UHGV virus genome: UHGV-0308106
Reading direction: 5' to 3' (one strand)
DNA from: a virus
DNA length: 55,105 nt
Shown here piece by piece: positions 10,384 to 50,523 of the stretch (position 1 is its first letter; every line of letters starts with the position of its first letter). The position numbers and the translations under genes were made by a program. A model generated the notes under the pieces. The model worked only from the letters and a program-made list of their open reading frames with translations, searched no databases and had not been told where the DNA came from.

Positions 10384-10467
10384 CCGGTTCAAAAATGGCG
10401 AAAGCCGCGGTGCTCGAACACCAACGGCTTTCAGGTGCAAAAACAGTGCGTAATTGCGGAGAACAGT

Positions 10468-15262: not shown

Positions 15263-16045
15263 ATGAACCTTGAAAACACAGTGAAATACCACTTCGCTAA
15301 ATCCACACTGATTAGCGATTCTCCGCGCGCTACCGCCTCCGATTCACTGACCGGTACCGACATAATGGCTGCCATGGGCATGACGCAGGAACGCGCCGCA
15401 ATGGGTTACAGCGCCTTCCTCGGCAAGATGGGCATAAGCAATAACGACCGGGATCGGGCGATCGGTCTGCTGGCTGAGTACGCGATGACAAAATGCGACA
15501 AGGTTGCCGCACTGCGTAAGCTCGGTGCCGCGGTTAAACCTCAGGTGATGCACCAGTTGGCCACCTTCGCTTTTGAGGACTATTCCCGCAGCGCTGCCAG
15601 CGTGAAGCAGTGCGATTGTTGTGACGGTCAGGGCTTCATTGAGGCTGACGTGTTTACCAATAAATTCCGTAAGCCAGAAGGGAAAATGACCGTGTCCGGG
15701 ATGGTGAAGGTCAAAGAATCCATCAAAGTGCTATGCAAAAAGTGTAATGGCTCTGGTGTGGTTAGTGCTTCTTGCAGTGATTGCCATGGGCGCGGCAAGG
15801 CAGTGAACCAGGCTCTTACTGAGAAACAGGGCGTTCCTGTTCTGGCTGACTGTAAGCGCTGCGGAGGGCGTGGGTATGAACGACTTCCGTCGACTGAAGC
15901 CTATGCTGCTGTATGCCAGATTACTGACGCCATTAGCCTGGACACCTGGAAAAAGTCTGTTAAGCCATTCTACGACCTGCTGATCACGAAATTTGATATC
16001 GAAGAGTCCTGGGCCGAAAAACAGCTTAAGCAGATAACGCGGTAA
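15263..16045 (+). CDS. late-gene antitermination protein Q-like
   Basis: 260-aa ORF after rusA and before lysis genes; multiple CxxC pairs (CDCCDGQG, CKKCNGSG, CSDCHGRG, CKRCGGRG). Confidence 0.6.
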   Translation: MNLENTVKYHFAKSTLISDSPRATASDSLTGTDIMAAMGMTQERAAMGYSAFLGKMGISNNDRDRAIGLLAEYAMTKCDKVAALRKLGAAVKPQVMHQLATFAFEDYSRSAASVKQCDCCDGQGFIEADVFTNKFRKPEGKMTVSGMVKVKESIKVLCKKCNGSGVVSASCSDCHGRGKAVNQALTEKQGVPVLADCKRCGGRGYERLPSTEAYAAVCQITDAISLDTWKKSVKPFYDLLITKFDIEESWAEKQLKQITR

Positions 16046-19875: not shown

Positions 19876-20349
19876 ATGGCTGCATTAAAACCTGATGTGA
19901 AAGCCTTCATCATTCAGTCGCTTGCGTGCTATGACACGCCGACGCAGGTGGTTGAGGCTGTCCAAAAAGAATTCGGGATCAAGATCACCCGCCAGCAGGC
20001 TGAATCTCACGACCCCACGAAGGCCAGCGGTAAGACGCTCGCCAAAAAGTGGATCGAGATGTTCCACGCTACGCGCGAACGGTTCCTGACCGAAACCAGC
20101 GACATTCCGATCGCGAACAAATCCTATCGCCTCCGCGTGCTTGACCGCATGGCAACCAAAACCGAGGGGATGAAAAACTTCTCCCTGACGGCGCAGCTGA
20201 TTGAACAGGCCGCGAAAGAGGTTGGCGACGCTTACACCAATAAGCTGAAGGTTGAAAGCACTGGCAAGGATGGCGGCCCGATCAAGACCGAGACGACCAA
20301 CCTCACCGCAGATCAGGCCGCAGAGATTTACCGCAAGATGATGGGGTGA
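19876..20349 (+). CDS. putative terminase small subunit
   Basis: 157-aa ORF upstream of large terminase; paralog at 37662-38135. Confidence 0.5.
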   Translation: MAALKPDVKAFIIQSLACYDTPTQVVEAVQKEFGIKITRQQAESHDPTKASGKTLAKKWIEMFHATRERFLTETSDIPIANKSYRLRVLDRMATKTEGMKNFSLTAQLIEQAAKEVGDAYTNKLKVESTGKDGGPIKTETTNLTADQAAEIYRKMMG

Positions 20350-25619: not shown

Positions 25620-25833
25620 TCCAATGACTGCATATCTGTACCTTATGCAACTAATATCTATTAATCAGTGCGTTATCGTTCGGAATCATACTGCGTTACT
25701 GGCCTGAACCATAAAAATGACACTCCGAACATGTGCGGATTTATTCGCCGGATTTCGCTTTGATTCGGTACGTGAGGGACTAGAGCGAGAATCATGCGCC
25801 GTTTGCATTACATGGTAGCCAGAGAGGTGTTGA

Positions 25834-27063: not shown

Positions 27064-27104
27064 GGCATATCCATTTTTGGATAATTATGATTTCAAACGG
27101 GAAT

Positions 27105-27129
27105 AGCTGGCTTTAAGCCAGCTTTTTTT
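27105..27129 (+). terminator. intrinsic terminator after integrase
   Basis: agctggc-tttaa-gccagct hairpin followed by tttttt. Confidence 0.55.
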
Positions 27130-27206
27130 ATGCCCAAAGCTAACCGGAATGCGTTTTTTTTTATTCAAATCATATATAATCATATCGAATATATACGGAG
27201 GTTTTT

Positions 27207-27419
27207 ATGTCTATAAGTGGCGGTGATATTCTGCTAAAAGGTGAAGTGAAAGCGCGTTTACGTTATCGCTCAGACTCGTCATTCTACGAGTTTCTAAAAG
27301 ACGAGAAAAACGGCTTTCCAATGCCTTTTAAAGTCGGTGGGCGTAACTGCTGGTATGAAGATGAAGTAGATGCCTGGATAAGTAAACAAAGCGAGAAGCG
27401 CGGGATCTGCACATCATGA
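27207..27419 (+). CDS. AlpA-family transcriptional regulator
   Basis: 70-aa ORF; GGAGG SD; short HTH protein (FPMPFKVGGRNCWYEDEVDAWI) adjacent to integrase. Confidence 0.65.
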   Translation: MSISGGDILLKGEVKARLRYRSDSSFYEFLKDEKNGFPMPFKVGGRNCWYEDEVDAWISKQSEKRGICTS

Positions 27420-27558
27420 ATGTTTGCAGATTTGGGAAAGAGGGCTTGCTAACGGCTATCCGGGCAAGCCCTTTTTATTGTCAGTGGTGGGGATCTGTAA
27501 CTTACGGCCACCAGCGCCGGTAATCACCTTCTGGCTGGTGGCTTCACTGGCATGGCTA

Positions 27559-27918
27559 TTACGCTGCCGCATCATCTGAATTGAATTCAATGTGAATTCG
27601 GTCATAAGGCAGCACGATTTTTTCGCCGTCTTTGTCCAGAACGCCGCCGTTAAGCAGTGACTGAACATCGTTATAAACACCGCGAAAATCACGGTTAACA
27701 ATGCGTGATAGTTCGCGGATTGATACGGCTTGCGCTCCCTCCATCGCTTTGATGATCTGCCAGCGGTTAGGGGCAAGCATAGTTTTAGCCAGTTGTTCTA
27801 CAGTGGGAAAAATCAGTTCGGAACCGATGAAATCCCCGTTCATTGCGCGGGAGGCGTCGGACATTGCCACCCGGAAAGCATCATCAACGGTCATTACTCT
27901 GACGGTCAGCACTCGCAT
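27559..27918 (-). CDS. winged-HTH protein (antitoxin/regulator-like)
   Basis: 119-aa ORF, GGAGG SD, 4-bp gap after upstream 93-aa gene; HTH-like AVSIRELSRIVNRDFRGVYNDV. Confidence 0.5.
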   Translation of the reverse strand: MRVLTVRVMTVDDAFRVAMSDASRAMNGDFIGSELIFPTVEQLAKTMLAPNRWQIIKAMEGAQAVSIRELSRIVNRDFRGVYNDVQSLLNGGVLDKDGEKIVLPYDRIHIEFNSDDAAA

Positions 27919-27922
27919 GGTA

Positions 27923-28204
27923 TTACCTCCTCAACAGGTTTATGTCAGCCTGAAAGCTGGCGATCAGGTTCTCAATGGTGGTGAATGTCACCGGATATTC
28001 CCGATCATGGATGTGTTTGTGGTCGCCTTTGCCACGTTCGTTGTCGTAACGCATGACGCACTCGCCATCTACGATGTAGGCCAGACTGTACTTGTATTGG
28101 TGCTGGCTACCTAAAATTGCCGGGTCTACTTCCAGAATGCGGATCGAGGCGAAAGCGTTATCAGCTATCTGGATACGGCGGTTCATCAACTCAACAGCGG
28201 GCAT
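27923..28204 (-). CDS. small protein (toxin-like partner, family not recognised)
   Basis: 93-aa ORF, AAGGAG SD, operator palindromes immediately upstream. Confidence 0.45.
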   Translation of the reverse strand: MPAVELMNRRIQIADNAFASIRILEVDPAILGSQHQYKYSLAYIVDGECVMRYDNERGKGDHKHIHDREYPVTFTTIENLIASFQADINLLRR

Positions 28205-28220
28205 TGGCTTATCTCCTTGT

Positions 28221-28270
28221 TGATGTAAATAATAACATCACAAACGAATGATGTAAATGATTACATCATT
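28221..28270. promoter_or_regulatory. inverted-repeat operators upstream of two-gene cassette
   Basis: tgatgt-aaataata-acatca (28221-28240) and aatgatgtaa-atga-ttacatcatt (28247-28270). Confidence 0.45.
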
Positions 28271-28412
28271 GCGGGTAAGTTACCGATGGCATGAACGGTT
28301 CGCTGCTGGTGGCTCTCGATCTCCTGAAAGCTCAGGATATTGCCGGGCATGATTTTAATCGGCGGACTTTTCGGCCGATTGAATACGGGCAGTTCGCTCC
28401 CTGTGTATCGGC

Positions 28413-28552
28413 TTCGTTTCTGGATGATTCGCGTTTCGTTTCTGGTGAATTCGCATTCGCAATTTGTCCGCGAAGCCTTATCAGGCCTGATTTGAGCGGT
28501 GCTCTCTCTTTGCGAATTCGCAGTTCCATTTCGCACTTTGATTCGCAGTTTT
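28413..28552. repeat. cluster of palindromic GAATTCGC/GATTCGC motifs
   Basis: Tandem 20-mers ttcgtttctggatgattcgc (28413-28432) and ttcgtttctggtgaattcgc (28435-28454); further gcgaattcgca and gattcgca copies to 28552; overlapping ORFs look non-coding. Confidence 0.4.
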
Positions 28553-28713
28553 CAAATGTTCCCATTCCGGGGACACGGACGATTAGACAGGTGTTACAAA
28601 CGTTGGTGGTGAAATATCTTCTTGCGCTGGCGGGCACGGTGTGGTTATGATTATTTCGCACCTCACAAAACGGGTGCCGGGCGTGAGAACCCGGATAAGG
28701 TCAAAGGCGACAA

Positions 28714-28737
28714 CAGACGCCTATCGCGTCTTTTTTT
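28714..28737 (+). terminator. intrinsic terminator in leader upstream of icd-like gene
   Basis: agacgc-ctatc-gcgtct stem followed by tttttttt. Confidence 0.4.
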
Positions 28738-28931
28738 TGTCGCAATGTCAGTACCCCCATATGTAGCGGCGCAGATCCGCGCACAGAATCAATGGTGGCT
28801 CTGGCAGGGCAGCTTTCGGGCTGGCCGGTTCCCTTTGACGCCGGTATTCTCACCCCTGTCAGTGTCACCACCCTTTAGAGCGTGAGAACTCAGGTGGTGG
28901 CTCCTTAAATTAGTCAAAGGAGATCATCATC

Positions 28932-29129
28932 ATGATGACTATCCCTACCCTCGCTCAAACAAAATTCACCTGGCGCTTTCTCGCGCTGAATCGCCACGAT
29001 AAAAAAGCCAAACCTTGCCGTCTGTCCGTTGAGGCTGCGACCGAACGCGAAGCCCGCCGCATCCTTGCGCCGCACTTTATTTTGTCTCTGGCCGCACGTC
29101 TGCCAGTGCCGGAGGTGCGTCATGTTTAA
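28932..29129 (+). CDS. Icd-like small protein (P4 family)
   Basis: 65-aa; KFTWRFLALNRHD...RLSVEAATEREARRILAPHFILSLAARLP resembles Icd/Ash proteins as recalled. Confidence 0.45.
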   Translation: MMTIPTLAQTKFTWRFLALNRHDKKAKPCRLSVEAATEREARRILAPHFILSLAARLPVPEVRHV

Positions 29130-30000
29130 CCTCCAGACACTGACAGCTAAAGCCCGTGAGCTGCGCGGCAACGTCGTTAAAGCGGCGAGCACAAAGGGAA
29201 GTCGCACCATGACTCCTGTCTATGACCGTGACGAGCAGCGCAAGCTACGCGAGCGCATCCAGCAGACACAGCCCGATTGGGTGTTGCTCTGGTGGGATAT
29301 TGCGACCGTAACCGGCTGGCGTACCAGCGACGTTTGCAACCTGCGCTATTCCTGCGTCAATTGGGAAACGGGGCAGGCGACAATTATCGTTGCCAAGCAG
29401 ACCAAAGCCGCCGAAGCGCGGGCAACCCGCAAAGGTATTGAAATTGTGCGCCAGCAGCGCAAGGACGCCGCGCGGCTCGCCGCTGACCATATCGCCTACA
29501 TGAAGTGGGATAGTATCGGTTGTGACGAACTGGCCGCCGATATGAACGACGAGGAACAGGCGATTGTGTTCGGGCTGGTGGCAAAGGCTGACGTCAAGCA
29601 CGACACCAAACAGTTACCGCCCGGCATTATCAAGCGGCTGCGTGACCGTCAGGATCGGAATCTGGTGGAGGACGACCTGGTATTTTCACGCTCTCAAATC
29701 GAAAGTAACCGTTGTCAACGTCTGGAAGGTAGCGTTACTCGCCAAACCATCTGGCGCAAACTTCATGGCGTCATGGCGTGGTTTACCCGTTTCATTAACG
29801 CTAAATTGCGCCTGAGCGCGTACTCAAGCCGAAAAATAGCAGCCTTTAATCTTATGTCCGCAGGTGGCGAACAGGGATTATTGGTGGCTTCTGAAATGCT
29901 GGGGCATAGCAACCCGGCGATAACTCGCACTTACCTTCAATTAGGCAGCAAAGCCGCCGCTATCCAGTCCCGTTTAGCAATGGAGGTGTGCCATGCGTAA
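29122..30000 (+). CDS. tyrosine recombinase-like protein (catalytic domain only)
   Basis: 292-aa from ATG 29122 (GGAGG SD); WDIATVTGWRTSDVCNL and C-terminal LGHSNPAITRTYLQ; no N-terminal core-binding domain. Confidence 0.55.
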   Translation: MFNLQTLTAKARELRGNVVKAASTKGSRTMTPVYDRDEQRKLRERIQQTQPDWVLLWWDIATVTGWRTSDVCNLRYSCVNWETGQATIIVAKQTKAAEARATRKGIEIVRQQRKDAARLAADHIAYMKWDSIGCDELAADMNDEEQAIVFGLVAKADVKHDTKQLPPGIIKRLRDRQDRNLVEDDLVFSRSQIESNRCQRLEGSVTRQTIWRKLHGVMAWFTRFINAKLRLSAYSSRKIAAFNLMSAGGEQGLLVASEMLGHSNPAITRTYLQLGSKAAAIQSRLAMEVCHA

Positions 30001-30172
30001 TCTCTTTCATATCACTGGCTACGCCGTCAATAAACGCGGCCTGACAGTCGGTTTTAGCTATCTCATCGACGCCGAGGACGCCATGCAGGCAAAAGTTAAT
30101 GCCATTGCTGAGGCGAAAGACGATGAACTCACCCACGTATCTATTGCCCGTATTCTGGAGGTGGCAGCATGA
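29993..30172 (+). CDS. hypothetical small protein
   Basis: 59-aa ORF not in track; GGAGG SD; coupled to neighbours. Confidence 0.35.
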   Translation: MRNLFHITGYAVNKRGLTVGFSYLIDAEDAMQAKVNAIAEAKDDELTHVSIARILEVAA

Positions 30173-30381
30173 GCAAAGTATCCCTGGCCGATTCAACCTG
30201 CCGTATCCAACAGGCGCAGGAAGTCCTGTCTCTCTGGCTTGAGGCGACGAATAAAAACGATAGCGGCACGGCTAAATTAATCGGCGCAATCATTTCCCTT
30301 CTGGATGGTATCCCCGAATTGATGGATTCAGTAGAGGATGAATTGGCTGGCATGGACTTAAAAGCGATGGATAAAGCATGA
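30169..30381 (+). CDS. hypothetical protein
   Basis: 70-aa ORF, ATGA coupling on both sides. Confidence 0.4.
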   Translation: MSKVSLADSTCRIQQAQEVLSLWLEATNKNDSGTAKLIGAIISLLDGIPELMDSVEDELAGMDLKAMDKA

Positions 30382-31004
30382 GCAACGTAGAGAAATTCAC
30401 ACCGGGAAATGCCGACTTATTACACGCCGAAGCCACACCGCACGGCGTAAACATCATGACCCGCAATGATGCCGGGATGTATGAGCATGTAGCCATTATC
30501 ACCTATGAGAGCGCTGTAAGCCGTCTGGATGCGGGAGAGTACGACGATACGCCAGATATCGGCTACGCCATTCATTTTGCCGTTGCTGATGGCGGGGCGC
30601 GTGGCTGGTTCGACTTTACCGCGCAGCATGAAGTAACCATGTGGCGCTGGCTGATTGCTGCGACGTTCGTTTCTGAGATGAAGCGCGAAAACGGCACAAC
30701 CTCCGTCACGGAGGCTGACGGCACAACATCGCAGGTGGCGATTTACTCCAATGGTAATGCGGGCATGGTGATTTACCCGTTTGCTGAACGGCTGGCGATG
30801 GCGAACAACATCGAGGGCGCAATGATTGAGCGATACGGCGTCGAACAGGGTACGGAAAAAGCCATTGTGTTTTATCAGGCCATGCTGGATACGGAGCGCG
30901 GCGAGCTTACCCCGTTCGGACGTGAAACGCTGGCAGAGCTACACGATCACTTCATTGCTGATCTGGATGAAAACGGCTGGCCTGAAATGCCAGCGGCGCA
31001 CTGA
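30378..31004 (+). CDS. hypothetical protein
   Basis: 208-aa ORF upstream of primase in same operon. Confidence 0.45.
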   Translation: MSNVEKFTPGNADLLHAEATPHGVNIMTRNDAGMYEHVAIITYESAVSRLDAGEYDDTPDIGYAIHFAVADGGARGWFDFTAQHEVTMWRWLIAATFVSEMKRENGTTSVTEADGTTSQVAIYSNGNAGMVIYPFAERLAMANNIEGAMIERYGVEQGTEKAIVFYQAMLDTERGELTPFGRETLAELHDHFIADLDENGWPEMPAAH

Positions 31005-31016
31005 GGGAGCGACACA

Positions 31017-33797
31017 ATGCGTAATATCGACCTTATCCGCGAAGTGACCAGCGCCGCAGCAGGGCGCTGGCCTTATGTGCTGGCTGGGTTGTCTATCGAC
31101 GTGCCTGATTCATCGCGCCGCCATTCTCCATGCCCTGCATGTGGTGGAAAAGACCGTTTCAGATTCGACGACAACGGGCGCGGTAGCTTTATCTGCAACC
31201 AGTGTGGCGCTGGTGACGGGCTGGATTTAATCAAGCGGGTTAACAACTGCGACACTACGGAGGCGGCACAGCTTGCCGCTGACGTGCTGGGTATTGATTA
31301 CCGGGCAGCGCAATCCGACCCGGTGGCAGCGAGCCATATAAGGGAGCAACTGGAAGCTGACCGCCAGCAGCGTGAGCAGGAGCGCCAGAAACAGGCAGCA
31401 GGGGACGCAGAGCAGCGAAGGGCTACGTTTGCCCGTCTGTATGCCGGAATGCGCCAGAGTGCCACACAGGGCGAATCTGATTACCTGCAATCAAAAGGGC
31501 TGACCGGGTTTAACTATCCGGTTATGCCTGATGGTTCGTTATTGCTGGAGCTGGTGGACGAATCCGGCGCAGTGGCAGCAGCGCAAACCATTACACCGCA
31601 GGGAGAGAAGCGACTCCTGACAGGTTCAGCAAAGCGCGGGGCATATCACGCCGTAAACGCGCCAGAATCGCCGCAGAGCGTTTTAATTGCCGAGGGGCTG
31701 GCGACGGCCCTTTCAGTTCACCTGATGCGCCCGGACGCGCTGGCAGTGGCAGCAATTGACGCGGGCAACCTGCTACCCGTTGCCGAAGTGATGCGCCGGA
31801 AGTACCCACAGGCACAAATCATCATTGCCGCAGATAACGACCAGATGGGCGAAAGTGACGGAATTAAAGGAGTGAAAGTTAACACTGGCAAGGAGGCCGC
31901 AGAGAAAGCCGCGAAAGCCGTTTCTGGCTGGGTTTCCATGCCACCAGTGGACTATAAAGCGGACTGGAACGACTACCACCAGCAATACGGCCTCGAAGCG
32001 GCCACAGCAGCATTTAACGACTCAATGTATCAACCGGAGGGTAAGAAAGTGGGTGCGACACTGACAGCTATCGACGGCGGCAAGAAAAAACTTGGTATCG
32101 ACGACGATCTGAAACCGCGAGTAGAGAGCCGTGCGGATGGCATTCACTGGATCACCCCGAAAGTGGACAAAGACACAGGAGAAATTATCAATACCGAGGC
32201 GTGGCTATGCTCTCCGCTGGAGATTGCTGGTGCGGGGAGTGATAACGCCAGACAGCGCTTTCTGATCCTGCGTTGGGACGTCCCCGGCAACCGGGGGCAA
32301 GTTACCCGTGCGCTTCCATGGGAGGACATTGGCGACCGTGAGGGATGGCGCACGCTGAAAAACGGCGGTGTCAGTGTGACAACCAAACCATCGTTGCGGG
32401 CAATTCTGGCCGACTGGCTGCAGCGAACTGGTAGCGGCAAGGAATGGCAGATCAGCCACACCACAGGCTGGCACAACGGGGCGTACATCATGCCGGATGG
32501 TGATGTTATTGGTGAGCCAGAGATACCGCTGTTATTCAGTGGTCGGAGTGCGGCGGCTGGTGGCTATACCGTCAGTGGAACGCCGGAAAGCTGGCGTGAT
32601 TCGGTGGCGCGTCTTGCGCTGGGAAACCCGTCAATGATGCTGGGCGTTGCTGCTGCGCTTTCTGCGCCGCTGATCGGGCTTGTTGGCGCTGACGGGTTCG
32701 GCGTGCATCTTTTCGAGCAGTCCAGCGCAGGGAAGACAACCACCGCCAACATTGCCAGCAGTTTATACGGTGAACCGGATGCCTTGCGCCTTACCTGGTA
32801 CGGTACAGCGCTGGGTATCGCCAACGAAGCGGAAGCGCATAACGACAGCCTGTTACCGCTGGATGAAGTGGGGCAGGGCAGTAGCGCCAAAGACGTTGCT
32901 ACGTCTGCTTACACGCTGTTTAACGGTGCCGGAAAGCTACAGGGGGCCAAGGAGGGCGGCAACCGTGAGTTAAAGCGCTGGCGCACCGTGGCGATCAGTA
33001 CCGGGGAAATGGACATTGAGACGTTTCTTTCTGCTGGTGGGCTGAAAGTTAAGGCCGGGCAACTGGTGCGATTGCTTAATTTACCGATGGAGAAATCAGT
33101 AACGCACCATGAGTACCAGAACGGGAAGCAACACGCCGACGCACTCAAAGAGGCTTACCAGACGAACCACGGAGCCGCAGGCCGTGAATGGATTAAATGG
33201 CTTGCAGGCCACCAGCAGGAGGCAAAACAAGCTGTCAGGGCGGCGCAAGAGCGCTGGCGCAGTCTTATCCCCGCTGATTATGGCGAACAGGTTCATCGTG
33301 TCGGTGAGCGGTTCGCCATTCTGGAGGCGGCGCTGGTGCTGGGGATGCCTGTCACTGGTTGGGGGGAGCAGGAAAGTCGGGACGCTATCCAGCATGGCTT
33401 TAATGCTTGGGTAAAAGAGTTTGGCACGGGGAACCGTGAGCATAAGCAGATCATCGAGCAGGCAGAGGCGTTTCTTAATGCCTACGGCATGAGCCGTTTC
33501 GCGCCGTTCCCGTATAGCCCGGCTGACATGCCGATCCGGGATTTAGCCGGATACCGTCAGAAAGGTGAGCATGACGAAAGCCCCGTAGTGTTCTACACCT
33601 TTCCGGCTGCGTTCGAAAAGGAGATAGCGCAGGGCTTTAATGCGAAACAGTTTGCCCGTGTGCTGGCCGGGGCTGGGGTACTGAAACCGCCAGCCAGCGG
33701 AAGGGGATATCAGCGTAAATCCCCGCGAATTGATGGACGCCAGATAAACGTTTATGTGCTCCAGCTACGACCCGACGAGATAGAGGGCGAAGAATAA
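31017..33797 (+). CDS. primase-helicase (P4 alpha-like)
   Basis: 926-aa; zinc ribbon CPACGG...CNQCG; TOPRIM-like AEGLATALSVH and IIAADNDQ; P-loop-like SSAGKTT. Confidence 0.9.
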   Translation: MRNIDLIREVTSAAAGRWPYVLAGLSIDVPDSSRRHSPCPACGGKDRFRFDDNGRGSFICNQCGAGDGLDLIKRVNNCDTTEAAQLAADVLGIDYRAAQSDPVAASHIREQLEADRQQREQERQKQAAGDAEQRRATFARLYAGMRQSATQGESDYLQSKGLTGFNYPVMPDGSLLLELVDESGAVAAAQTITPQGEKRLLTGSAKRGAYHAVNAPESPQSVLIAEGLATALSVHLMRPDALAVAAIDAGNLLPVAEVMRRKYPQAQIIIAADNDQMGESDGIKGVKVNTGKEAAEKAAKAVSGWVSMPPVDYKADWNDYHQQYGLEAATAAFNDSMYQPEGKKVGATLTAIDGGKKKLGIDDDLKPRVESRADGIHWITPKVDKDTGEIINTEAWLCSPLEIAGAGSDNARQRFLILRWDVPGNRGQVTRALPWEDIGDREGWRTLKNGGVSVTTKPSLRAILADWLQRTGSGKEWQISHTTGWHNGAYIMPDGDVIGEPEIPLLFSGRSAAAGGYTVSGTPESWRDSVARLALGNPSMMLGVAAALSAPLIGLVGADGFGVHLFEQSSAGKTTTANIASSLYGEPDALRLTWYGTALGIANEAEAHNDSLLPLDEVGQGSSAKDVATSAYTLFNGAGKLQGAKEGGNRELKRWRTVAISTGEMDIETFLSAGGLKVKAGQLVRLLNLPMEKSVTHHEYQNGKQHADALKEAYQTNHGAAGREWIKWLAGHQQEAKQAVRAAQERWRSLIPADYGEQVHRVGERFAILEAALVLGMPVTGWGEQESRDAIQHGFNAWVKEFGTGNREHKQIIEQAEAFLNAYGMSRFAPFPYSPADMPIRDLAGYRQKGEHDESPVVFYTFPAAFEKEIAQGFNAKQFARVLAGAGVLKPPASGRGYQRKSPRIDGRQINVYVLQLRPDEIEGEE

Positions 33798-33811
33798 AAC
33801 ACACATACGAG

Positions 33812-34104
33812 ATGTTTTTTTGTTGGTTCAGTTGGTTCAGTAACTATTTAATTAAGATAAGTATATGTATTTAATATATTTCTATACCCATAAGTGAACC
33901 AACACTGAACCAACAAATACCCATTTTGAACCAACAAATGCCGCTATTGAACCAACGCCCTTTTCTGGCTGGCCTGTAAATCTTTCCCACTGAACCAACA
34001 CGAAAATAGCGTTTGTTGGTTCAAAACAAGGCTTTGTTGGTTCACTCCTCAAGAAATAATCCTTACAAAACAACAATCTTTACAAATTGAACCAACTGAA
34101 CCAA
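33812..34104. repeat. iteron array / candidate origin of replication
   Basis: 12 copies of GAACCAAC in both orientations (e.g. 33812, 33821, 33886, 33897, 33918, 33939, 33982, 34005, 34026, 34079, 34088, 34097) flanking an AT-rich tract 33830-33880. Confidence 0.65.
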
Positions 34105-34397
34105 CTGAACCAACATGTTTTTGTTTATCTATAGAGTTTTTTCGGAGAGTAATTACGAATTTGGAGGGGCATCGCCTAAGCGACAGTATGCGGAAACGGC
34201 AACTTTGCGGAGCGGAAAAGAAAAAGCCCGCGCTGGAGAGGCGAGGGCTTTTGTTAACCATGTTTATGCAATCACACAATGGTGGATCACCGTCATAGTA
34301 CCACGTCGATTTATCATTTCAATGTACGCAATGATGTTTACTAATATTGCAATTTATGCAATGATCAGAATTTAAACAACGCAAAAGGTTATGAACA

Positions 34398-34961
34398 ATG
34401 AAACAGATAACCAATGTTAATCTGGAAAGTGATAACGCTGGTGGTACAGTCGAGGTGACTTACTCCGATGATACGTTCGAAAGGCTGACCTGTTCGCTGC
34501 CTGTGGCTCTCGTCATTGCGAACCTTGCAACGACGCTTAAGCAGGAACGTGCAACACGCATTGCAACCGGCGACCGCCTGCGCCGGATGTATACCCGCGA
34601 TAGTGACATGATTACCCGCAGCGGCAGCGGCGCTTCTACGACCTCCACCGCGCCAACGTCAATGGACGCTGAATTTATGCGCCTGGTACGCGCTGTAGCA
34701 CCAAAGTATGACAACGCCCTTCCTGATACCGATCCTCGCCTTGTTGCGCTTGATGTGCTGCGTTACGCACCCGCTGAGGCATTCAGTGCGGTACACCCGA
34801 CCCCGCTATCAGAGATTCAGCTTGATCAGGCTATCGACGTTCTGGAACAGGTTGGCGACTACATGCGAGTTAACAACGTTTCACCGAAGATTCTCACCAC
34901 AGGCGACGCCATTCGCAGCATTAACACCGACAACGCCAGTTTCTGGCATCGCACGAAGTAA
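34398..34961 (+). CDS. hypothetical protein with scaffold-like C-terminal motif
   Basis: 187-aa; C-terminus TTGDAIRSINTDNASFWHRTK resembles helper 24387-25619 C-terminus. Confidence 0.5.
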   Translation: MKQITNVNLESDNAGGTVEVTYSDDTFERLTCSLPVALVIANLATTLKQERATRIATGDRLRRMYTRDSDMITRSGSGASTTSTAPTSMDAEFMRLVRAVAPKYDNALPDTDPRLVALDVLRYAPAEAFSAVHPTPLSEIQLDQAIDVLEQVGDYMRVNNVSPKILTTGDAIRSINTDNASFWHRTK

Positions 34962-34967
34962 GGAGCA

Positions 34968-35162
34968 ATGAGCATGGCTATTTATGACCCGAAATTAGCA
35001 GCAGGAAACCCGCAAAGCGCCGGGCGTAAACTCTTTGGCCGTGAACAGGCCGAGCAATTGCGGATGCGTAACAACTTCAACAACGAATGCCGCAATCTGG
35101 AAAAAGTCAACGAAGCGAATGCAAAGTTCTGGAGTGAACAGGATGAAAAAGCCAAACGTTAA
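34968..35162 (+). CDS. hypothetical small protein
   Basis: 64-aa; contains NAKFW near C-terminus. Confidence 0.4.
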   Translation: MSMAIYDPKLAAGNPQSAGRKLFGREQAEQLRMRNNFNNECRNLEKVNEANAKFWSEQDEKAKR

Positions 35163-35310
35163 GCCGGTATTACTCTCTGGCGACCAGTTCGCCGCAATCT
35201 GCAAGATCCAGGAGCGCGAACGCCAGCGCTCCGATATTGGCGTAGCGCCGTCTGTCCATCAAATTGCCCGTGGGCTGGTGGCGAAAGCGCTGGCATCAAT
35301 TCAGGAATAA
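35143..35310 (+). CDS. hypothetical small protein
   Basis: 55-aa from ATG 35143 with GGAG SD. Confidence 0.3.
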   Translation: MKKPNVKPVLLSGDQFAAICKIQERERQRSDIGVAPSVHQIARGLVAKALASIQE

Positions 35311-35315
35311 CGACT

Positions 35316-36383
35316 ATGTCATATAACTGGATGCGCCATTTCGAGCTACAGCTCATCGATGAGAATGGCAAAGGAATTAGCCTTAGTGATTTCAAAGTTA
35401 CCTTTGATATAGAGCGTAACGATAACAAATGGCCAGCTGTTGCGACGGTCAAGATCTACAACCTTTCACCAACTACTCAGAACCGTATTATGCAACGTGA
35501 GTTTGCCAAAATTGTGTTGATAGCGGGGTATGATGGTCGTGCGCAGGATGTAAGGGCAAGTGATGTGGGGATTGCACGTGAAATATCAGCAAGCGAAGTG
35601 GGCCAGGCTAACGGCGCAAACTACGGAGTCATTTTCAGCGGTGATATCCGCTTCACTGTGACCGGAAAAGATAACCCTGTCGATTCATGGGTACAGGTGC
35701 AGGCTTGTGACTCTGTGGAGGCGTTTACCAGCGCATTTATCAACACCACTATCAGCAAAGGCTACACCACAGAAGATATTTATGTTGAGCTTATGAAAAG
35801 GCTGGAACCTTACGGCATTTCTCGCGGTATTGTTCCTGAATTCCCGGCAACGGTATTTCCTCGCGGTCGAGCCCTCTTTGGCTATGTCCATAACTATCTC
35901 GATGAAGTGGCCGCGCAGTGCAAAGCCACTTGGCAATTCAACTATGGAAAAGTCGATATTGTTCCCAGAGACAAGGCCACTCATGAAGCTGTGGTTCTCA
36001 ACGCTAATACCGGGCTTATCGGTATGCCTCAGCAGACCATCGGTGCGGGTGTGAATGTCAAATGCCTGATTAACTCACGGATTCACCTGAACGGGCTTAT
36101 CCAACTGGATCAGGCTTCGGTATATCGTAGCGCCTTATCTGCGGATCAAATTGCCCAAGCTGGTGGGCCAATTTCGGTGGAAAGCCAAAACGGAAACCTT
36201 GTCACTACTGGATTAACGCAGAGTCCGGCGAGCATTGCTACCGATGGTATCTATAAGGTTCGGTATATCAGTTACACGGGCGACACGCGCGGTCAAGCGT
36301 GGTATATGGATCTGGCGTGTGAGGCTCGCGGGAATTCTGATTTATTTTCAAGTTCATTTATGAATAAGCAGAGTGAAGAATGA
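35316..36383 (+). CDS. baseplate hub-like protein (paralog of 47472-48536)
   Basis: 355-aa; about 70 percent identical by eye to helper hub-like protein (MSYNWMRHFELQLID vs MSLNWMRHFELQLLD). Confidence 0.5.
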   Translation: MSYNWMRHFELQLIDENGKGISLSDFKVTFDIERNDNKWPAVATVKIYNLSPTTQNRIMQREFAKIVLIAGYDGRAQDVRASDVGIAREISASEVGQANGANYGVIFSGDIRFTVTGKDNPVDSWVQVQACDSVEAFTSAFINTTISKGYTTEDIYVELMKRLEPYGISRGIVPEFPATVFPRGRALFGYVHNYLDEVAAQCKATWQFNYGKVDIVPRDKATHEAVVLNANTGLIGMPQQTIGAGVNVKCLINSRIHLNGLIQLDQASVYRSALSADQIAQAGGPISVESQNGNLVTTGLTQSPASIATDGIYKVRYISYTGDTRGQAWYMDLACEARGNSDLFSSSFMNKQSEE

Positions 36384-36724
36384 AGAAGATTATTTTACTG
36401 ATTGGTTTATTGGGCGCATCTGGAAGTCATGCTGCGCAGGTTATTACCATGCAGTGCGGAAACTTTCGCTTTGAGATGATAGAAAACTCGATGGCGAGAA
36501 TTAATGGTGAGTATGTAACATCTCAGAAAATTACAGAGTTCGGACAGAACGGGGCAAAAGTAGAAATGACGCTTATGCCTGCCAGCGATGGGAATCTGTA
36601 TGGGTTTGAATACATCCATCCTGACGGTAGCAAAAAGCGCTGGCTGAATGTTGAGCTTATCCGCACCAATATGAATCAGGCGCGGATCATTGGCTCGTTT
36701 GATTGTAAGCGCGTGAAGGGGTAA
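36380..36724 (+). CDS. secreted small protein (paralog of 48549-48893)
   Basis: 114-aa; signal peptide MKKIILLIGLLGASGSHA; two Cys; shared C-terminal DCRKVK. Confidence 0.5.
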   Translation: MKKIILLIGLLGASGSHAAQVITMQCGNFRFEMIENSMARINGEYVTSQKITEFGQNGAKVEMTLMPASDGNLYGFEYIHPDGSKKRWLNVELIRTNMNQARIIGSFDCKRVKG

Positions 36725-36732
36725 GGGGAATC

Positions 36733-37395
36733 ATGCCATTCATTCGACCCGCAAATGAGCAGGATGTAACACAGCTTGTTCAGGACAATGCTAAAGCATC
36801 TGTAACCAATGCGTTACCTGGCATTATTCGTTCGTTCGATCCCGAAACTGTCACCTGCGATGTTGATATAGCCATTACGGCAAGAATGACGAAGGCTGGC
36901 ACAATGGGTGAAGATTTCCAGTATGAGTCCGTCCGCTATCCGATTCTTAACGATTTGCCTGTGGTTTTTCCGCGCGGGGGCGGAGTTACGCTTACTTTCC
37001 CGGTTAAAGATGGTGATGAATGCCTCATCGTATTCTCTTCGCGTTCGATTGATTTCTGGTGGCAGAACGGCGGTGTGCAGGAGCGAGCTGATGGGCGTAT
37101 TTTAGATCTGTCTGATGCGTTCGTTATTCCTGGCCCCCAATCACAGGTAAAGAAGATATCCAATATCAGTACCAACGCTGCGCAGCTGCGTACAGATGAT
37201 GGAGCGGCATTTGTAGAGGTGTCCGCTGGTGGAGCCATTACTATTACCAGCTCTCAAATCACCCTTAACGGGCCCGTGCAGGTAAACGGAACGATCACTT
37301 CCACTGGCGACCAAACGGCCAACGGTATCAGCCAGATTAACCATACCCACGGCGGCGTACAATCAGGCGGCAGCAACACAGGAAAACCACAATGA
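36733..37395 (+). CDS. baseplate spike protein gpV-like (paralog of 49430-50170)
   Basis: 220-aa; PGIIRSFDPETVTC, FPRGGG, C-terminal HTHGGVQSGG; about 65 percent identical to helper gpV. Confidence 0.7.
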   Translation: MPFIRPANEQDVTQLVQDNAKASVTNALPGIIRSFDPETVTCDVDIAITARMTKAGTMGEDFQYESVRYPILNDLPVVFPRGGGVTLTFPVKDGDECLIVFSSRSIDFWWQNGGVQERADGRILDLSDAFVIPGPQSQVKKISNISTNAAQLRTDDGAAFVEVSAGGAITITSSQITLNGPVQVNGTITSTGDQTANGISQINHTHGGVQSGGSNTGKPQ

Positions 37396-37571
37396 GCAAT
37401 ATTGAAAAACTGAAACCAGAAGAAAGCGGATCCAGCCAGAATGGTAAGGTTCGTACCTGGCTGGATGATATCAACGGGCAGCCGGAACCAGATGGTATTG
37501 GCAGCTTCGGTGAGAGTGCGATCTGCGAAGAATCACGCACAGCGGAAACCATGCGAAATAACGTAGGGTGA
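37392..37571 (+). CDS. hypothetical small protein
   Basis: 59-aa ORF, ATGA overlap with gpV-like stop. Confidence 0.3.
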   Translation: MSNIEKLKPEESGSSQNGKVRTWLDDINGQPEPDGIGSFGESAICEESRTAETMRNNVG

Positions 37572-37599
37572 CGGTCAGATGACGTGATCTGTAACTTTA

Positions 37600-37647
37600 A
37601 GTAGCGGTGCAGGGGCAGAACTCAGCACGCTACTTTTATTTTCTTTG
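37600..37647 (+). terminator. intrinsic terminator upstream of orphan small-terminase paralog
   Basis: agtagcggtgc...gcacgctact stem with one bulge, followed by tttattttctttg. Confidence 0.5.
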
Positions 37648-37661
37648 TCAAAAGGTGAACA

Positions 37662-38135
37662 ATGGCGGCATTACCAACAATGGCTAAGGTTATGATTATT
37701 CAATCATTAGCTTGCTACGAACCCCCTTCCAGAATCGTTGAGCTTGTAAAACAAGATTTTGGCATCGTCGTTACCCGGCAGCAGATATCGGCCTACAACC
37801 CTGAAAATACAATGGCAAAAAATCTTAGCCAAAAATGGGTAGAACTCTTTAATCACACTCGCGCCCGCTTCCAGAGTGAAATATCCGAGATCCCTATCGC
37901 TAACAAAGCGTACCGGCTGCGTATGCTCGATCGCATGGCTAACCGTGCAGAGGCAATCAAGAATTACGCATTAACAGCGCAGCTTATTGAACAGGCCGCG
38001 AAAGAGTGCGGGGACGCTTACACCAACAAATTAAAGGTTGAAACAACGGGTAAAGATGGTGGTCCGATCAGAACGGAAACAACGAACTTAACCGCCGAAG
38101 AAGCCGGGGAGGCATACCGCAAATTTATGGGATAA
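37662..38135 (+). CDS. small terminase paralog (orphan)
   Basis: 157-aa; same length as 19876-20349 product, C-terminal half nearly identical; no large terminase or portal follows. Confidence 0.5.
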   Translation: MAALPTMAKVMIIQSLACYEPPSRIVELVKQDFGIVVTRQQISAYNPENTMAKNLSQKWVELFNHTRARFQSEISEIPIANKAYRLRMLDRMANRAEAIKNYALTAQLIEQAAKECGDAYTNKLKVETTGKDGGPIRTETTNLTAEEAGEAYRKFMG

Positions 38136-38366
38136 CCACCAGCGCCGTGACACGTCACACGCAAAAATAGCACCGCCCATTAATGGGCTGGTGGCACAGC
38201 TTGCATATTGAAATTCCCTGTAAATCTTACAGATCTGGTATTGAGTAACTTACCCCATTCAGCGCCATACATCACAGAGCAGCCTATGGACTACACACAA
38301 AATCAGGCTGCAAATAAATCCTTATATTTCAGTTGATTAAATAATAGCCTTGCATTCCTGTACCGG

Positions 38367-47163: not shown

Positions 47164-47469
47164 ATGCAGTTTAACGAAATACCGCTTTCTCCTGACAATC
47201 AGCAGTTCCGCGTTTTGCTGGGCAATACTACGTATACGCTCAGGATCATCTGGCGCGATGCGGCTGGTTGGATTATGGACGTGATGGATAGCGGCGGTGC
47301 CGCGCTTCTCTCTGGCGTACCTCTACTGACCGGCGTGAACCTTTTACGACAATTTCCACAGCTTGGCATTGATGGTGCGCTGGTGGTGGCGACCGATAAG
47401 GGCGCACCAGACGAGCCCACCAAAACCAACCTCGGCACATACAGCCACCTCATTTTCGTGCAGGAGTAG
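47164..47469 (+). CDS. baseplate protein, hypothetical
   Basis: 101-aa ORF. Confidence 0.4.
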   Translation: MQFNEIPLSPDNQQFRVLLGNTTYTLRIIWRDAAGWIMDVMDSGGAALLSGVPLLTGVNLLRQFPQLGIDGALVVATDKGAPDEPTKTNLGTYSHLIFVQE

Positions 47470-47471
47470 AA

Positions 47472-48536
47472 ATGTCTCTTAACTGGATGCGCCATTTTGA
47501 GTTGCAGCTGTTGGACCAGAACGGGCAGGGTATTTCCCTGTCTGATTTTAAGGTCACGTTCCAGATCGAGTGGGCAGATACACGCTGGCCGCGCGTGGCA
47601 AACGTGAAAATTTACAACCTTTCGACCGATACCACGAACAAGATACTGGGGCAGGAGTTTGCAAAAATTCGCATCATTGCCGGGTATGACGGTATTGCGC
47701 CGGATGTTGATGCGAGCCAGGTTGGTGTCGCCCGGGAGATTTCACCAGACCAGGTAGGGCAGGTGAACGGTCAGAACTACGGCCTGATATTTGACGGTGA
47801 TATTCGCTTCACCGTCACCGGGAAGGACAACATCACCGATTCCTGGGTGCTGATTCAGGCCATCAGTAACCACGAAGCGTTCCTCTACGCGACTACCATC
47901 ACCACGCTTGCCGCTGGCTATACCGTTGCGGATCTGCACCGGGCGACGATGCAGGATTTCAACGCGTTCGGCGTGACACAGGGCATTACCGGCGATTTTC
48001 CTGATACCGTGTTTCCTCGTGGCCGCGCGATTTACTCATCCAGCCGCAACGTGATGGATAATATTGCTGCGCAGTGCAAAGCGACATGGCAACTGGTGGA
48101 TGGTCAGGTCCAGATGGTGCCGGAGGATAAATATATTCACGAAGCCATTGTGTTGAATGCCAATACTGGCCTGATCGGTATGCCGCAACAAACGATGGGC
48201 GGCGGAGTAAACGTGCGGTGCCTGATAAACCCAAACATCCGTATTAATGGTCTTATCCAGCTCGATCAGGCTTCGGTGTACCGCGCCACGCTCGGCAATA
48301 GCGAAATAGCACAGTCGCCCGGGCGTATCACCGAAACAGAAGAGAACGGCAACCGTGTGCTGACCGGCACGACGTCACAGGCTGCCAGCATTGCGACGGA
48401 TGGCGTTTATATCGTCAAAGCTATCGACTATACTGGCGACACCAGAGGTCAGGCGTGGTACATGGATTTGATGTGTTTTGCGCGTGGCGCTCGTGATCTT
48501 TATAGCCCGAAAGCAATGCAAGGGACGACGAATTAG
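47472..48536 (+). CDS. baseplate hub-like protein
   Basis: 354-aa; position before gpV-like spike, as Mu gp44; paralog in nested element. Confidence 0.5.
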   Translation: MSLNWMRHFELQLLDQNGQGISLSDFKVTFQIEWADTRWPRVANVKIYNLSTDTTNKILGQEFAKIRIIAGYDGIAPDVDASQVGVAREISPDQVGQVNGQNYGLIFDGDIRFTVTGKDNITDSWVLIQAISNHEAFLYATTITTLAAGYTVADLHRATMQDFNAFGVTQGITGDFPDTVFPRGRAIYSSSRNVMDNIAAQCKATWQLVDGQVQMVPEDKYIHEAIVLNANTGLIGMPQQTMGGGVNVRCLINPNIRINGLIQLDQASVYRATLGNSEIAQSPGRITETEENGNRVLTGTTSQAASIATDGVYIVKAIDYTGDTRGQAWYMDLMCFARGARDLYSPKAMQGTTN

Positions 48537-48548
48537 TGAGGTGGGGCC

Positions 48549-48893
48549 GTGAGACATTTACTTTGCACTGTTACCGTGTTCGCGGTGCTTATATCAGCAC
48601 CCGCTTTTGCGGATCAGCAATGTGGTGATTTTAAAATCCATTGGGCAGATGATGGCTTAGCCAGAATCAATGGCGCAAAGCCAGAAATGCAAAAAATCAC
48701 CTTCCTGAAAAACAAAGGCGATTATAACAATATCAAGATGGATTGGCGTATGGCTACCGATCAGCCTGGAAGATGGGTTGGTCTTGAGTACATCAATCGA
48801 AACGGCAAAGCCATTCTCAACGCACAGTGGTTGCAAGCCAGCATGGATTCGCCGCGTCAGTATGCAACATACGACTGCCGAAAAGTAAAATAG
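48549..48893 (+). CDS. secreted small protein
   Basis: 114-aa; signal peptide MRHLLCTVTVFAVLISAPAFA; two Cys; C-terminal DCRKVK. Confidence 0.5.
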   Translation: MRHLLCTVTVFAVLISAPAFADQQCGDFKIHWADDGLARINGAKPEMQKITFLKNKGDYNNIKMDWRMATDQPGRWVGLEYINRNGKAILNAQWLQASMDSPRQYATYDCRKVK

Positions 48894-48916
48894 CCCGCCA
48901 GATAGGCGGGCATGCG

Positions 48917-49207
48917 TCAAAAATATTGAGCTTTAATTATAATAAACACAATAATTACGAACAGGATGTTTCTAATTATTTTTTGCTTATGAGTAAGTTG
49001 TTTTTTTTCTGTCGATTTCCCGGGAGAGTAAAGGTTAGTGGTATGCGACAGCCCCGTGCCGGGAAGGCCATTTGTCATCTTTACGCCTTTTTTCCCGATG
49101 TTAATGGTGGAACCTTTACCACCAATTGAAGTGCTTACTCCGCTTTTACTAATGTTGATCGCGAGTCCGGGCGCAATCCGGATTCTTTTACGAAATCTAA
49201 ATCCCAT
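48917..49207 (-). CDS. DUF4236-like protein (antisense moron)
   Basis: 96-aa; RIAPGLAINISKSGVSTSIGGKGSTINIGKKG; C-terminal TM; AT-rich; hairpin terminator at 48895-48912. Confidence 0.45.
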   Translation of the reverse strand: MGFRFRKRIRIAPGLAINISKSGVSTSIGGKGSTINIGKKGVKMTNGLPGTGLSHTTNLYSPGKSTEKKQLTHKQKIIRNILFVIIVFIIIKAQYF

Positions 49208-49429
49208 TTGTTACTCCTGTAGTCAATAATGCGATGGTGCAGGTCCACTCTATGGCGGCTTCATGGCTGAAATTGATTTTCAATGCTTACTTGTTGCAAA
49301 CATATCCTAATACACCTTGTGAATGTGTGCCATTGCAGCGGAAAAGCCTTACTTCACACTGATGTAGCTTAGTTACTAAGAGATAATTGATACCAAACCA
49401 GCTTCGGCTGGTTTTTTTATGGGGGTTTT

Positions 49430-50170
49430 ATGCCAATTCCAACTCAATCACAGATCGGCGGTGAGCAGCAGACCGCGCAGGCCATTGCCGATTCGGTGTC
49501 GACCCAGATGCGCGTAGCGATGCCCGGCATCATTCAGTCGTTCGATCCTGAGACTGTTACCTGCACAGTAGAGGTGGCGCTACGCGGTATTGTTGGCGAT
49601 GGATCCACCGAATTAAAACCGCTGGTGGATGTGCCGGTCATCTTCCCGCGCGGCGGCGGTTGCACGCTGACCTTTCCGGTAAAAGAAGGCGACGAGTGCC
49701 TCCTGATTTTTGCTGACCGTTGCATCGATTTTTGGTGGCAGAGCGGCGGCGTTCAGGAGACCGTCGACCCGCGCCAGCATGACTTATCTGATGCGTTCGC
49801 CATCGTTGGCCCGCAGTCGCAAGCACGGAAAATCAGCGGTATCAGTACCAGCGCCGCGCAGCTGCGAACCGATGATGGTGCGGCGTTTGTAGAAGTCGCC
49901 GCAGGACATAACATCACCATTAAAACACCGGGCCAGCTTACAGCTACGGCTGAAGGTGGAACGACAATCACATCCCCGACTATCACGCTGAACGGCAACG
50001 TAACGATTAATGGCAACTTGTCTCAGGGAATGGGCGAAAGCGGCGGTACTGCGACGATGCTTGGGCCGGTGACGGTAACGAATGACGTAACAGCTTCTGG
50101 TATCAGTGTCGCCACGCATAAACATGGCGGAGTACAGACTGGCGGGGGAACTACCGGAGGGCCGCAATAA
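49430..50170 (+). CDS. baseplate spike protein gpV-like
   Basis: 246-aa; FPRGGG, C-terminal THKHGGVQTGG; followed by W/J/I-like genes. Confidence 0.75.
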   Translation: MPIPTQSQIGGEQQTAQAIADSVSTQMRVAMPGIIQSFDPETVTCTVEVALRGIVGDGSTELKPLVDVPVIFPRGGGCTLTFPVKEGDECLLIFADRCIDFWWQSGGVQETVDPRQHDLSDAFAIVGPQSQARKISGISTSAAQLRTDDGAAFVEVAAGHNITIKTPGQLTATAEGGTTITSPTITLNGNVTINGNLSQGMGESGGTATMLGPVTVTNDVTASGISVATHKHGGVQTGGGTTGGPQ

Positions 50171-50523
50171 TGCGATACCGTCGCGAAGATACTGAAGGCG
50201 ATTACACTTTCGGCCAGGGTGACGATACTTTCCTTATCGACAGTCCGGAATGTGTCGCCCAGGCCGTAAAAACCCGTTTCGAGCTGTGGCGCGGTCAGTG
50301 GTTTCTCGATCTGACGGAAGGCACGCCGTATGTTCAGTCAGTGCTTGGGAAGCAGCGATCAGATGTCTACATCCTGGCTATACGCGAACGCATACAGGAT
50401 ACACCGGGCGTTCTGTCGATTCTTTCCTTCGATACCAATTATGACGGCACCAGCCGTCGCGTCACCTTCACTTCCTCCATTGACACAATCTACGGCCAGA
50501 CGACTGTAACAAGCGAGGCATAA
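50170..50523 (+). CDS. baseplate protein (gpW/Mu gp46-like)
   Basis: 117-aa, ATGA-coupled between gpV-like and gpJ-like genes. Confidence 0.5.
   Translation: MRYRREDTEGDYTFGQGDDTFLIDSPECVAQAVKTRFELWRGQWFLDLTEGTPYVQSVLGKQRSDVYILAIRERIQDTPGVLSILSFDTNYDGTSRRVTFTSSIDTIYGQTTVTSEA

Follow-up and report, generated by a model that had tools for sequence, protein, structure and literature searches.

A DUF4236 gene as cargo between the baseplate hub and spike genes of a temperate myovirus

We analysed a gene of the DUF4236 family in UHGV virus genome UHGV-0308106, using a stretch of 55,105 nucleotides (nt) that we refer to throughout as the window. The gene lies antisense to the late operon, between p114, which encodes a small secreted protein and follows the gene for the baseplate hub, and gpV, which encodes the baseplate spike (Table 1). 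The last nucleotide of p114 is 48893 and the first of gpV is 49430, which leaves a gap (48894-49429) of 536 bp; a preliminary description of the locus had recognized a gap between these two genes but put its length at 540 bp. The gpV product matches the Pfam spike N-terminal domain at 141 bits and the GpV Apex motif at 33.7 bits, and carries the RefSeq label 'phage baseplate assembly protein V'. The p114 product has two conserved cysteines and belongs to no Pfam family, and it matches phrog_3443 at 6.9e-46. From 47400 to 50300 the window is 100% identical to the chromosome of Escherichia coli TOK-001, where the counterpart is a prophage between kch and yciI that combines lambda-like early genes with a SEN34/Omnitron-like myovirus head/tail module. 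The anatomy of the locus makes it highly probable that such a SEN34/Omnitron-like temperate myovirus has a cargo hotspot here, and that nucleotides 48894-49411 are one of the accessory cassettes exchanged in it.

The leftward gene of 96 codons had been described as 'DUF4236-like'; its product proves to be a full member of PF14020, with a score of 73.6 bits against a gathering threshold of 27 (E = 1.8e-20) and residues 3-55 aligned to profile positions 1-54/55. The identical gene in TOK-001 carries the RefSeq label 'DUF4236 domain-containing protein'. The domain sits at the extreme N terminus, starting at residue 1-3, as it does in our homolog alignment and in almost every one of the 150 top-scoring family representatives. 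Clustered at 50% identity, the family numbers 8,801 representatives (E ≤ 0.001). The N-terminal domain common to the homologs is 55 residues long; it opens at Met1 with a basic MGFRFRKRI motif and contains hairpin repeats rich in G, S and K. In 25 short homologs the domain is followed by a variable, often basic linker and a hydrophobic C terminus, and the combination of the domain with a membrane helix is conserved across Proteobacteria. A scan against PADLOC-DB 2.0 linked neither the DUF4236 protein nor p114 to a defence family (E cut-off of 1), and none of the ten PHROGs families matched has an assigned function.

The AlphaFold model of the protein, computed from a 90-sequence alignment, contains six antiparallel strands and a helix at residues 73-95, with a mean predicted local distance difference test score (pLDDT) of 80.8 and values of 84-95 in the helix. 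The predicted fold consists of an N-terminal six-strand beta-meander corresponding to the domain (3-55), a basic linker, and the C-terminal helix (73-95), which we presume to be a membrane anchor. On this model, the product is probably a tail-anchored membrane protein whose single C-terminal helix resides in the inner membrane. The architecture of the homologs, read with the positive-inside rule, suggests that the basic beta-domain faces the cytoplasm and that the anchor is C-terminal. The presence of an SH3_3 domain after the helix in three Vibrionaceae/Oceanimonas homologs fits this N-in, C-out topology.

The position that the gene occupies is highly variable among related phages. We compared 80 viral contigs retrieved with gpV (L008-L087) and 28 further phages (L199-L226), in which p114 and gpV are 63-2121 bp and 56-1867 bp apart, respectively. 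In the 80 relatives the slot holds cargo of 44 sequence clusters, mainly on the plus strand with some on the minus strand. Their domains include Arc-like repressors with BRO-N/P22 antirepressors, Phd with Fic/Doc, the YafO toxin and a DUF2335 membrane protein, alongside tRNA_anti-like secreted proteins and several lipoprotein-like proteins. The DUF4236 cassette is found in 11 of the 80 relatives and in 0 of the 28 further phages. Homology with relatives that bear other cargo breaks at ~48878-48891 on the left and at 49407-49412 on the right. The cassette moves independently of its flanks: near-identity among the loci that have it starts within the last 50-90 nt of p114, and the encoded protein is 96-100% identical although the neighbouring alleles share only 65-99% (p114) and 53-100% (gpV) identity. 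This degree of identity in the protein extends over 25 viral loci; the protein is also present in complete E. coli genomes, 19 of which hold most of the cassette, and the E. coli strains TOK-001 and WEM25 have an identical one.

Hypervariability extends to the left flank of the slot, as p114 alleles are only 44-80% identical in nucleotide sequence between loci whose hub and gpV flanks are ~100% identical. Such a gene for a secreted, fast-evolving protein lies within the baseplate operon, between hub and spike, in phages and satellites alike.

Two hairpins border the gene. The preliminary description had reported hairpins at both ends, at 48895-48912 and at 49397-49420. Both exist, with stems that we place at 48893-48911 and at 49395-49414, the latter followed by a T-run to 49421 just before gpV; they are not equivalent ends of a moron, for they are predicted terminators of different strands and with different owners. 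The left hairpin, with seven G-C pairs and a 5-nt loop, begins 5 nt beyond the DUF4236 stop codon. Its T-rich tail, TATTTTACTT, follows it on the minus strand only and is encoded by the last p114 codons; on the plus strand there is no T-run. This one-sided tail marks the left hairpin as the predicted intrinsic terminator of the antisense gene itself. The cassettes of EC2001 and SY3626 retain it, and the ST361/GZ7 version has the same layout.

The right hairpin has eight pairs (AAACCAGC with GCTGGTTT), a TTCG loop and seven T, and it ends 8 nt before the gpV ATG. A pattern scan of a 1.3-kb region found three terminator-like sites against 1.9 +/- 1.4 in shuffled sequences, so that the hairpins alone are not significant; it is comparison that argues for their reality, as all 80 relatives have a hairpin and T-run at the same place before gpV. 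With 27 of the 28 further phages, this terminator occurs in 107/108 loci whatever the cargo, and empty slots, with gaps of 56-63 bp, consist of the terminator only. The stems vary by paired changes (ACCAGC/GCTGGT, AGCCGC/GCGGCT, ACCCGCC/GGCGGGT, ACCCACC/GGTGGGT) around a constant T-run and ribosome-binding site. The stem variant of the window is found in 12 loci, 11 of them with the DUF4236 cassette and one (L015) with quite different cargo. Because the terminator is retained with any cargo, in empty slots and in L015, we assign it to the slot or the phage backbone as a predicted plus-strand intrinsic terminator; the DUF4236 gene is not what it marks. Its role might be to shield gpV from transcription in lysogens, or to fix the proportion of hub to wedge modules.

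Morons have been defined by extra DNA, deviant G+C content, a promoter and terminator of their own, and expression from a repressed prophage (Juhala et al. 2000; Cumby et al. 2012, PMC3594210). The DUF4236 gene is extra DNA, in that closely related phages have different cargo here or none. The G+C content of the gap is 41.4%, against 53.4 +/- 3.4% in the late region, where 0.35% of 536-bp windows are as low. The pattern of the minus-strand hairpin (48911-48893) with its T-rich tail points to a terminator belonging to the gene. Most of the defining features thus agree with the preliminary reading of the gene as a moron, although it is better seen as one allele of a hypervariable slot than as a single insertion. 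To call it an ordinary phage moron, already annotated in public genomes and with no evidence of an unusual mechanism, is largely right. What is modestly new is the definition of a hub-spike cargo slot with a resident terminator, together with the repeated placement of the large DUF4236 family at the tail tip.

We also considered whether a small RNA is encoded in the stretch from the DUF4236 start codon to gpV. The candidate, an isrK (RF01394) match at 49335-49417 on the plus strand, was rejected: its 23.4 bits fall below the gathering score of 50, the match is carried mostly by the terminator, and it aligns poorly with the genuine isrK at 28658-28736. Folding of the region gave z = 0.0 and 0.36 relative to shuffles on the two strands, indicating no unusual RNA structure.

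DUF4236 genes recur beside tail-tip genes well beyond the closest relatives. The ST361 and LHM10-1 prophages and Klebsiella phage GZ7 carry alleles with ~75% identity in the N-domain at the same place and in the same antisense orientation. Among the 80 viral loci most similar to the window protein, 46 have the gene antisense between the hub gene and/or p114 and gpV. Eight of these 46 represent a distant lineage, with hubs 25-30% and spikes 30-34% identical to those of the window; in one more locus, L154, the values are 22% and 24%. The identity of the hub (E217_GP41) and of the spike N-terminal domain in this lineage was confirmed with Pfam. When 68 loci of the lineage were sampled directly, ~28-30 had DUF4236 genes of several diverged forms lying antisense between hub and spike, and most of the remaining loci had an antisense secreted-protein gene there. 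The distant-lineage DUF4236 proteins have a longer architecture of their own, with a conserved LTNKQFRKLS..AGGKV motif before the helix. Identity of the N-domain is 67-100% within each lineage and 55-71% between lineages; this clustering of alleles by lineage points to long residence within lineages and not to random recent capture. From these comparisons, the presence of DUF4236 at the hub-spike junction is an old or recurrent association.

The family is also found close to tail-tip genes in four siphovirus settings. An enterobacterial lambda-like phage has a DUF4236 gene between the tape-measure gene and gpM, and a Pseudomonas syringae prophage has one between gpK and gpI/J on the tail-gene strand. 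In Clostridioides difficile phage phiCD38-2, gp15 (L309, record 10168-10809) encodes 213 residues with an N-terminal DUF4236 domain and lies just 5' of the tape-measure gene, and in an Acinetobacter phage the family occurs near a very large gene that we presume to encode the tape measure. Within the distant lineage, loci L237-L308 have antisense cargo in nearly every hub-to-spike gap, namely a 123-residue secreted protein, a DUF4236 membrane protein of 167-251 residues, or both.

The window holds a second, diverged copy of the baseplate genes in a satellite-like element of 12.7 kb (~25620-38345), which sets the window apart from TOK-001: it lies exactly between the helper DUF2213 and Gp24 head genes, and in TOK-001 these genes are 4 bp apart. 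The element contains an integrase, a primase and its own hub, p114 and gpV genes, and this gene content makes the labels helper and satellite, used in the preliminary description, reasonable ones. Protein identity between the two copies is 63% for the hub, 31% for p114 and 52% for gpV. As had been noted, the satellite p114 and gpV genes are adjacent, 8 bp apart. The restriction of the DUF4236 gene to the helper copy generalizes: in a satellite clade of 28 loci, defined by hubs 60-100% identical to the satellite hub, all 28 have a p114-gpV gap of 0-10 bp and lack DUF4236, against 56-1867 bp in the phage loci of the same search. The slot terminator is found in 1 of the 28. A satellite that is independent of the helper's Q would be expected to do without it. 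The alignment of the two loci that had been proposed to delimit the insertion is uninformative on gain versus loss and cannot separate insertion in the helper from deletion in the satellite, because the copies are 31-63% identical and stand in separate clades with no outgroup.

Several further features of the satellite deserve mention. Its insertion in the head operon of the helper, with a baseplate hub and spike of its own, looks unusual, and the same arrangement occurs in E. coli ECONIH5, ABWA45, ET791 and EC2001. The pair of isrK and C4 RNAs in the element suggests antisense immunity control of the P1/P7 type. A search of the satellite for duplicates of the helper's Dit-like and plug genes found none.

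Table 1. Coordinates of features in the window, at the cargo slot and in the satellite-like element
Feature	Coordinates	Strand	Remarks
Baseplate hub gene	47472..48536	+	354 residues; upstream of p114; weak E217_GP41 match, 26.6 bits
p114, left flank of slot	48549..48893	+	114-residue secreted protein; Sec signal peptide ending AFA|DQQCG
Predicted DUF4236-gene terminator	48883..48911	-	Stem-loop 48911-48893, then TATTTTACTT overlapping last p114 codons
DUF4236 gene	48917..49207	-	96 residues; Pfam, AlphaFold, homolog architecture
Shine-Dalgarno AGGAG	49214..49218	-	6 nt 5' of DUF4236 ATG, within conserved motif TTGACTACAGGAG
Conserved non-coding segment, presumed promoter region of DUF4236 gene	49288..49394	none	Alignment
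Predicted slot terminator	49395..49421	+	Stem AAACCAGC, loop TTCG, stem GCTGGTTT, seven T
gpV-type baseplate spike gene, right flank of slot	49430..50170	+	Pfam
Q-type antiterminator gene of helper prophage	15263..16045	+	Pfam PF03589 Antiterm, 153 bits
Satellite integrase	25834-27063		
Satellite isrK	28658-28736	+	Rfam 61.3 bits, gathering score 50
Satellite C4 antisense RNA	28788-28875	+	Rfam 78.8 bits, gathering score 45
Satellite second integrase-like gene	29029-30000		
Satellite Zn-ribbon/Toprim/DUF927 primase	31017-33797		
Satellite hub, p114 and gpV	35316-37395		
Satellite p114	36380-36724	+	8 bp from gpV; no cargo or terminator between
Satellite gpV	36733-37395	+	
Satellite DUF2280 small-terminase-like gene	37662-38135		64% identical to helper's 19876-20349

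Taken together, the explanation that we prefer is that the DUF4236 gene is a moron in a cargo hotspot, whose tail-anchored product is expressed in the lysogen and serves superinfection exclusion; as a whole, this explanation falls slightly short of an even chance. In a lysogen, the cassette would be transcribed from the prophage as an independent unit, and the terminator before gpV would stop rightward transcription arising in the slot from reaching gpV. Upon induction, polymerase modified by Q would pass this terminator and run antisense over the DUF4236 gene, which should shut the gene off. The presence of a Q-type antiterminator gene in the window leads us to expect that late transcription reads through the pre-gpV terminator, as in HK97. 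At the position that corresponds to this late-gene regulator, TOK-001 encodes a different protein, of 227 residues and with no Pfam match, so that two prophages alike in other respects diverge in their early regions. At the inner membrane, the DUF4236 protein would, by analogy with known exclusion proteins, block DNA delivery by incoming phages. Superinfection exclusion as the function of the protein is a tentative proposal from analogy, with a chance well below even.

Several observations weigh against this explanation. No minus-strand sigma-70 match of 9/12 or better was found upstream of the DUF4236 gene in the window, either with a promoter-finding tool or in a separate scan that allowed spacers of 16-18 nt; the best minus-strand score in the window was 8/12. 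Given this result, expression of the gene in the lysogen is an assumption. The likeliest location for a promoter within the window, judged from conservation, would be 49288-49394; in EC2001, the stretch that separates it from the ATG (~49223-49287) has been lost or exchanged for other sequence. In the diverged cassettes L088, L089 and L133 (ST361-like, LHM10-1), a 10/12 match, TTGATA-17-GATAAT, overlaps the gpV start codon, and L088 and L089 also have the Shine-Dalgarno motif TTGACTACAGGAG. A second point concerns the anchor, as the C-terminal helix of the window allele has a hydrophobic core of only 11 residues (I81-I91). Third, large phages (137-357 kb) have DUF4236 genes that are not near tail genes, and others lie in Vibrionaceae islands that are not of phage type, so the family is not restricted to prophage tail modules. 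Finally, the searchable literature yielded no functional work on DUF4236, which appears there in a single paper, as an annotation only; all matches to 'PF14020' were Plasmodium gene names.

The Vibrionaceae islands have a structure of their own. Loci L232-L235, from Photobacterium and Vibrio, encode 167-residue homologs in which DUF4236, the helix and SH3_3 follow one another, and a conserved gene for 179-191 residues with no Pfam match always comes next. The islands are variable and chromosomal and contain no obvious phage genes; the two neighbouring genes may constitute a module.

The protein could instead serve the phage's own lytic cycle, for example by helping the tail or baseplate to mature at the membrane, by aiding DNA delivery or by timing lysis. 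It would then be retained at the junction through its work with hub and spike, and not simply because inserts are tolerated there. Such a role would fit the persistence of the family at the hub-spike junction in two lineages whose hubs are 22-30% identical, with alleles that cluster by lineage, as well as the members near siphovirus tape-measure genes and the homologs in the 137-357 kb genomes, which probably belong to virulent phages. Most close relatives, however, carry unrelated cargo or none, so that no tail function can depend on the gene. The satellite clade also does without it. The antisense orientation adds to the difficulty, as late transcription would oppose expression. We consider a lytic-cycle role unlikely.

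Expression from the prophage could also be the mark of a lysogenic-conversion gene that alters the host envelope, for stress tolerance or colonization, as lambda Lom and Bor do, and that has no connection to exclusion. Moron anatomy and a predicted membrane protein are compatible with conversion, the slot holds many secreted proteins and lipoproteins that are not necessarily for defence, and the non-phage Vibrionaceae homologs have periplasmic SH3_3 domains. The bulk of the DUF4236 protein is predicted to be cytoplasmic, though, and not at the surface, and recurrence beside the tail-tip genes of unrelated phages has no obvious link to host physiology. Conversion is accordingly a doubtful account of the gene, and we hold it to be quite improbable.

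A small protein with a hydrophobic C terminus might, alternatively, be a membrane-active toxin, either an abortive-infection effector or the toxin of a type-I-like module, in which control would be exerted by an antisense RNA terminated at the plus-strand hairpin. A plus-strand promoter-like sequence, TTGAGC-18-AATAAT (48926-48955), could together with the terminator at 49395-49421 bracket an antisense RNA over the whole gene, and toxin-antitoxin pairs are common among the slot cargo. Promoter-like sites are nevertheless no more frequent than chance would give (2 found, 2.0 expected in shuffles), and the terminator, present in the family with any cargo, needs no antisense RNA to explain it. 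The sole Rfam match is the subthreshold isrK candidate, and the region folds no better than its shuffles. With 96 residues and a folded soluble domain, the protein is also larger than, and unlike, typical type I toxins; a toxin is very improbable. That the gene has decayed and lost its function, or is an open reading frame that arose by chance in intergenic junk, as the lack of a promoter in our scans of the window and of a known function might suggest, can be dismissed as barely conceivable in view of the strong Pfam match, the near-identity of the protein over 25 viral loci and its occurrence in complete E. coli genomes, the good Shine-Dalgarno sequence and terminator that flank the gene, and the conserved domain and membrane-helix architecture of a family of this size across Proteobacteria.

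The recurrence of DUF4236 genes beside the tail-tip genes of unrelated phages provides a concrete hypothesis, membrane-level superinfection exclusion, for a very large uncharacterized family. A wider form of this idea, to which we give a low probability, is that DUF4236 proteins are a large unrecognized class of phage inner-membrane factors that target the opening of the channel through the cytoplasmic membrane by the tape measure, hub or spike of the tail tip. Were this so, DUF4236 would be kept beside tail-tip genes in unrelated myoviruses and siphoviruses because exclusion specificity and tail-tip alleles co-evolve or exchange together. The hotspot itself, with its order of p114 stop, cargo, conserved terminator and gpV, could be mined for exclusion, defence and toxin-antitoxin genes in a common family of enterobacterial temperate myoviruses. 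The satellite baseplate copies, which lack cargo in 28/28 cases and the terminator in 27/28, bear on how satellites express tail genes borrowed from their helpers.

The slot between p114 and gpV resembles the hotspots described in 2022 (PMC9122126), in that both are fixed positions in a temperate-myovirus backbone occupied by alternative, horizontally exchanged cassettes. The published hotspots differ in phage family and in position, with the slot described here lying between the hub-associated p114 and gpV. In our system no satellite copy of the slot contains cargo, while satellites of the P4 type possess separate hotspots.

As for function, P22 SieA and T4 Imm are small phage inner-membrane proteins that block DNA entry and leave the receptor untouched (see PMC3594210). 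Their likeness to the DUF4236 protein is a functional analogy only, and homology is not expected. The closest parallel is the moron gp15 of HK97, a small inner-membrane protein encoded in the tail operon that has been shown experimentally to block genome injection (PMC3594210). Like gp15, the DUF4236 cassette is an extra unit of low G+C content in a temperate tail operon under a Q-type antiterminator, and it encodes a small predicted inner-membrane protein. The tail operon of HK97 also has annotated terminators, and the one that follows gp15, CCCGC-tatcaa-GCGGG with eight T, ends a few bases before the start of the tape-measure gene (ATGGG..ATG), as the terminator in the window does before gpV. 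The position of phiCD38-2 gp15 is likewise that of HK97 gp15. BLASTP of the DUF4236 protein against HK97 gp15, a member of the YebO family, gave no alignment at E of 100 or better; the resemblance is one of anatomy and proposed role. The two also differ in design: HK97 gp15 has 62 residues with an N-terminal helix and is encoded on the tail-gene strand, whereas the DUF4236 gene encodes 96 residues with a C-terminal helix, runs antisense and has a second terminator of its own. Exclusion by HK97 gp15 was established by experiment; for the DUF4236 protein, we propose it by analogy.

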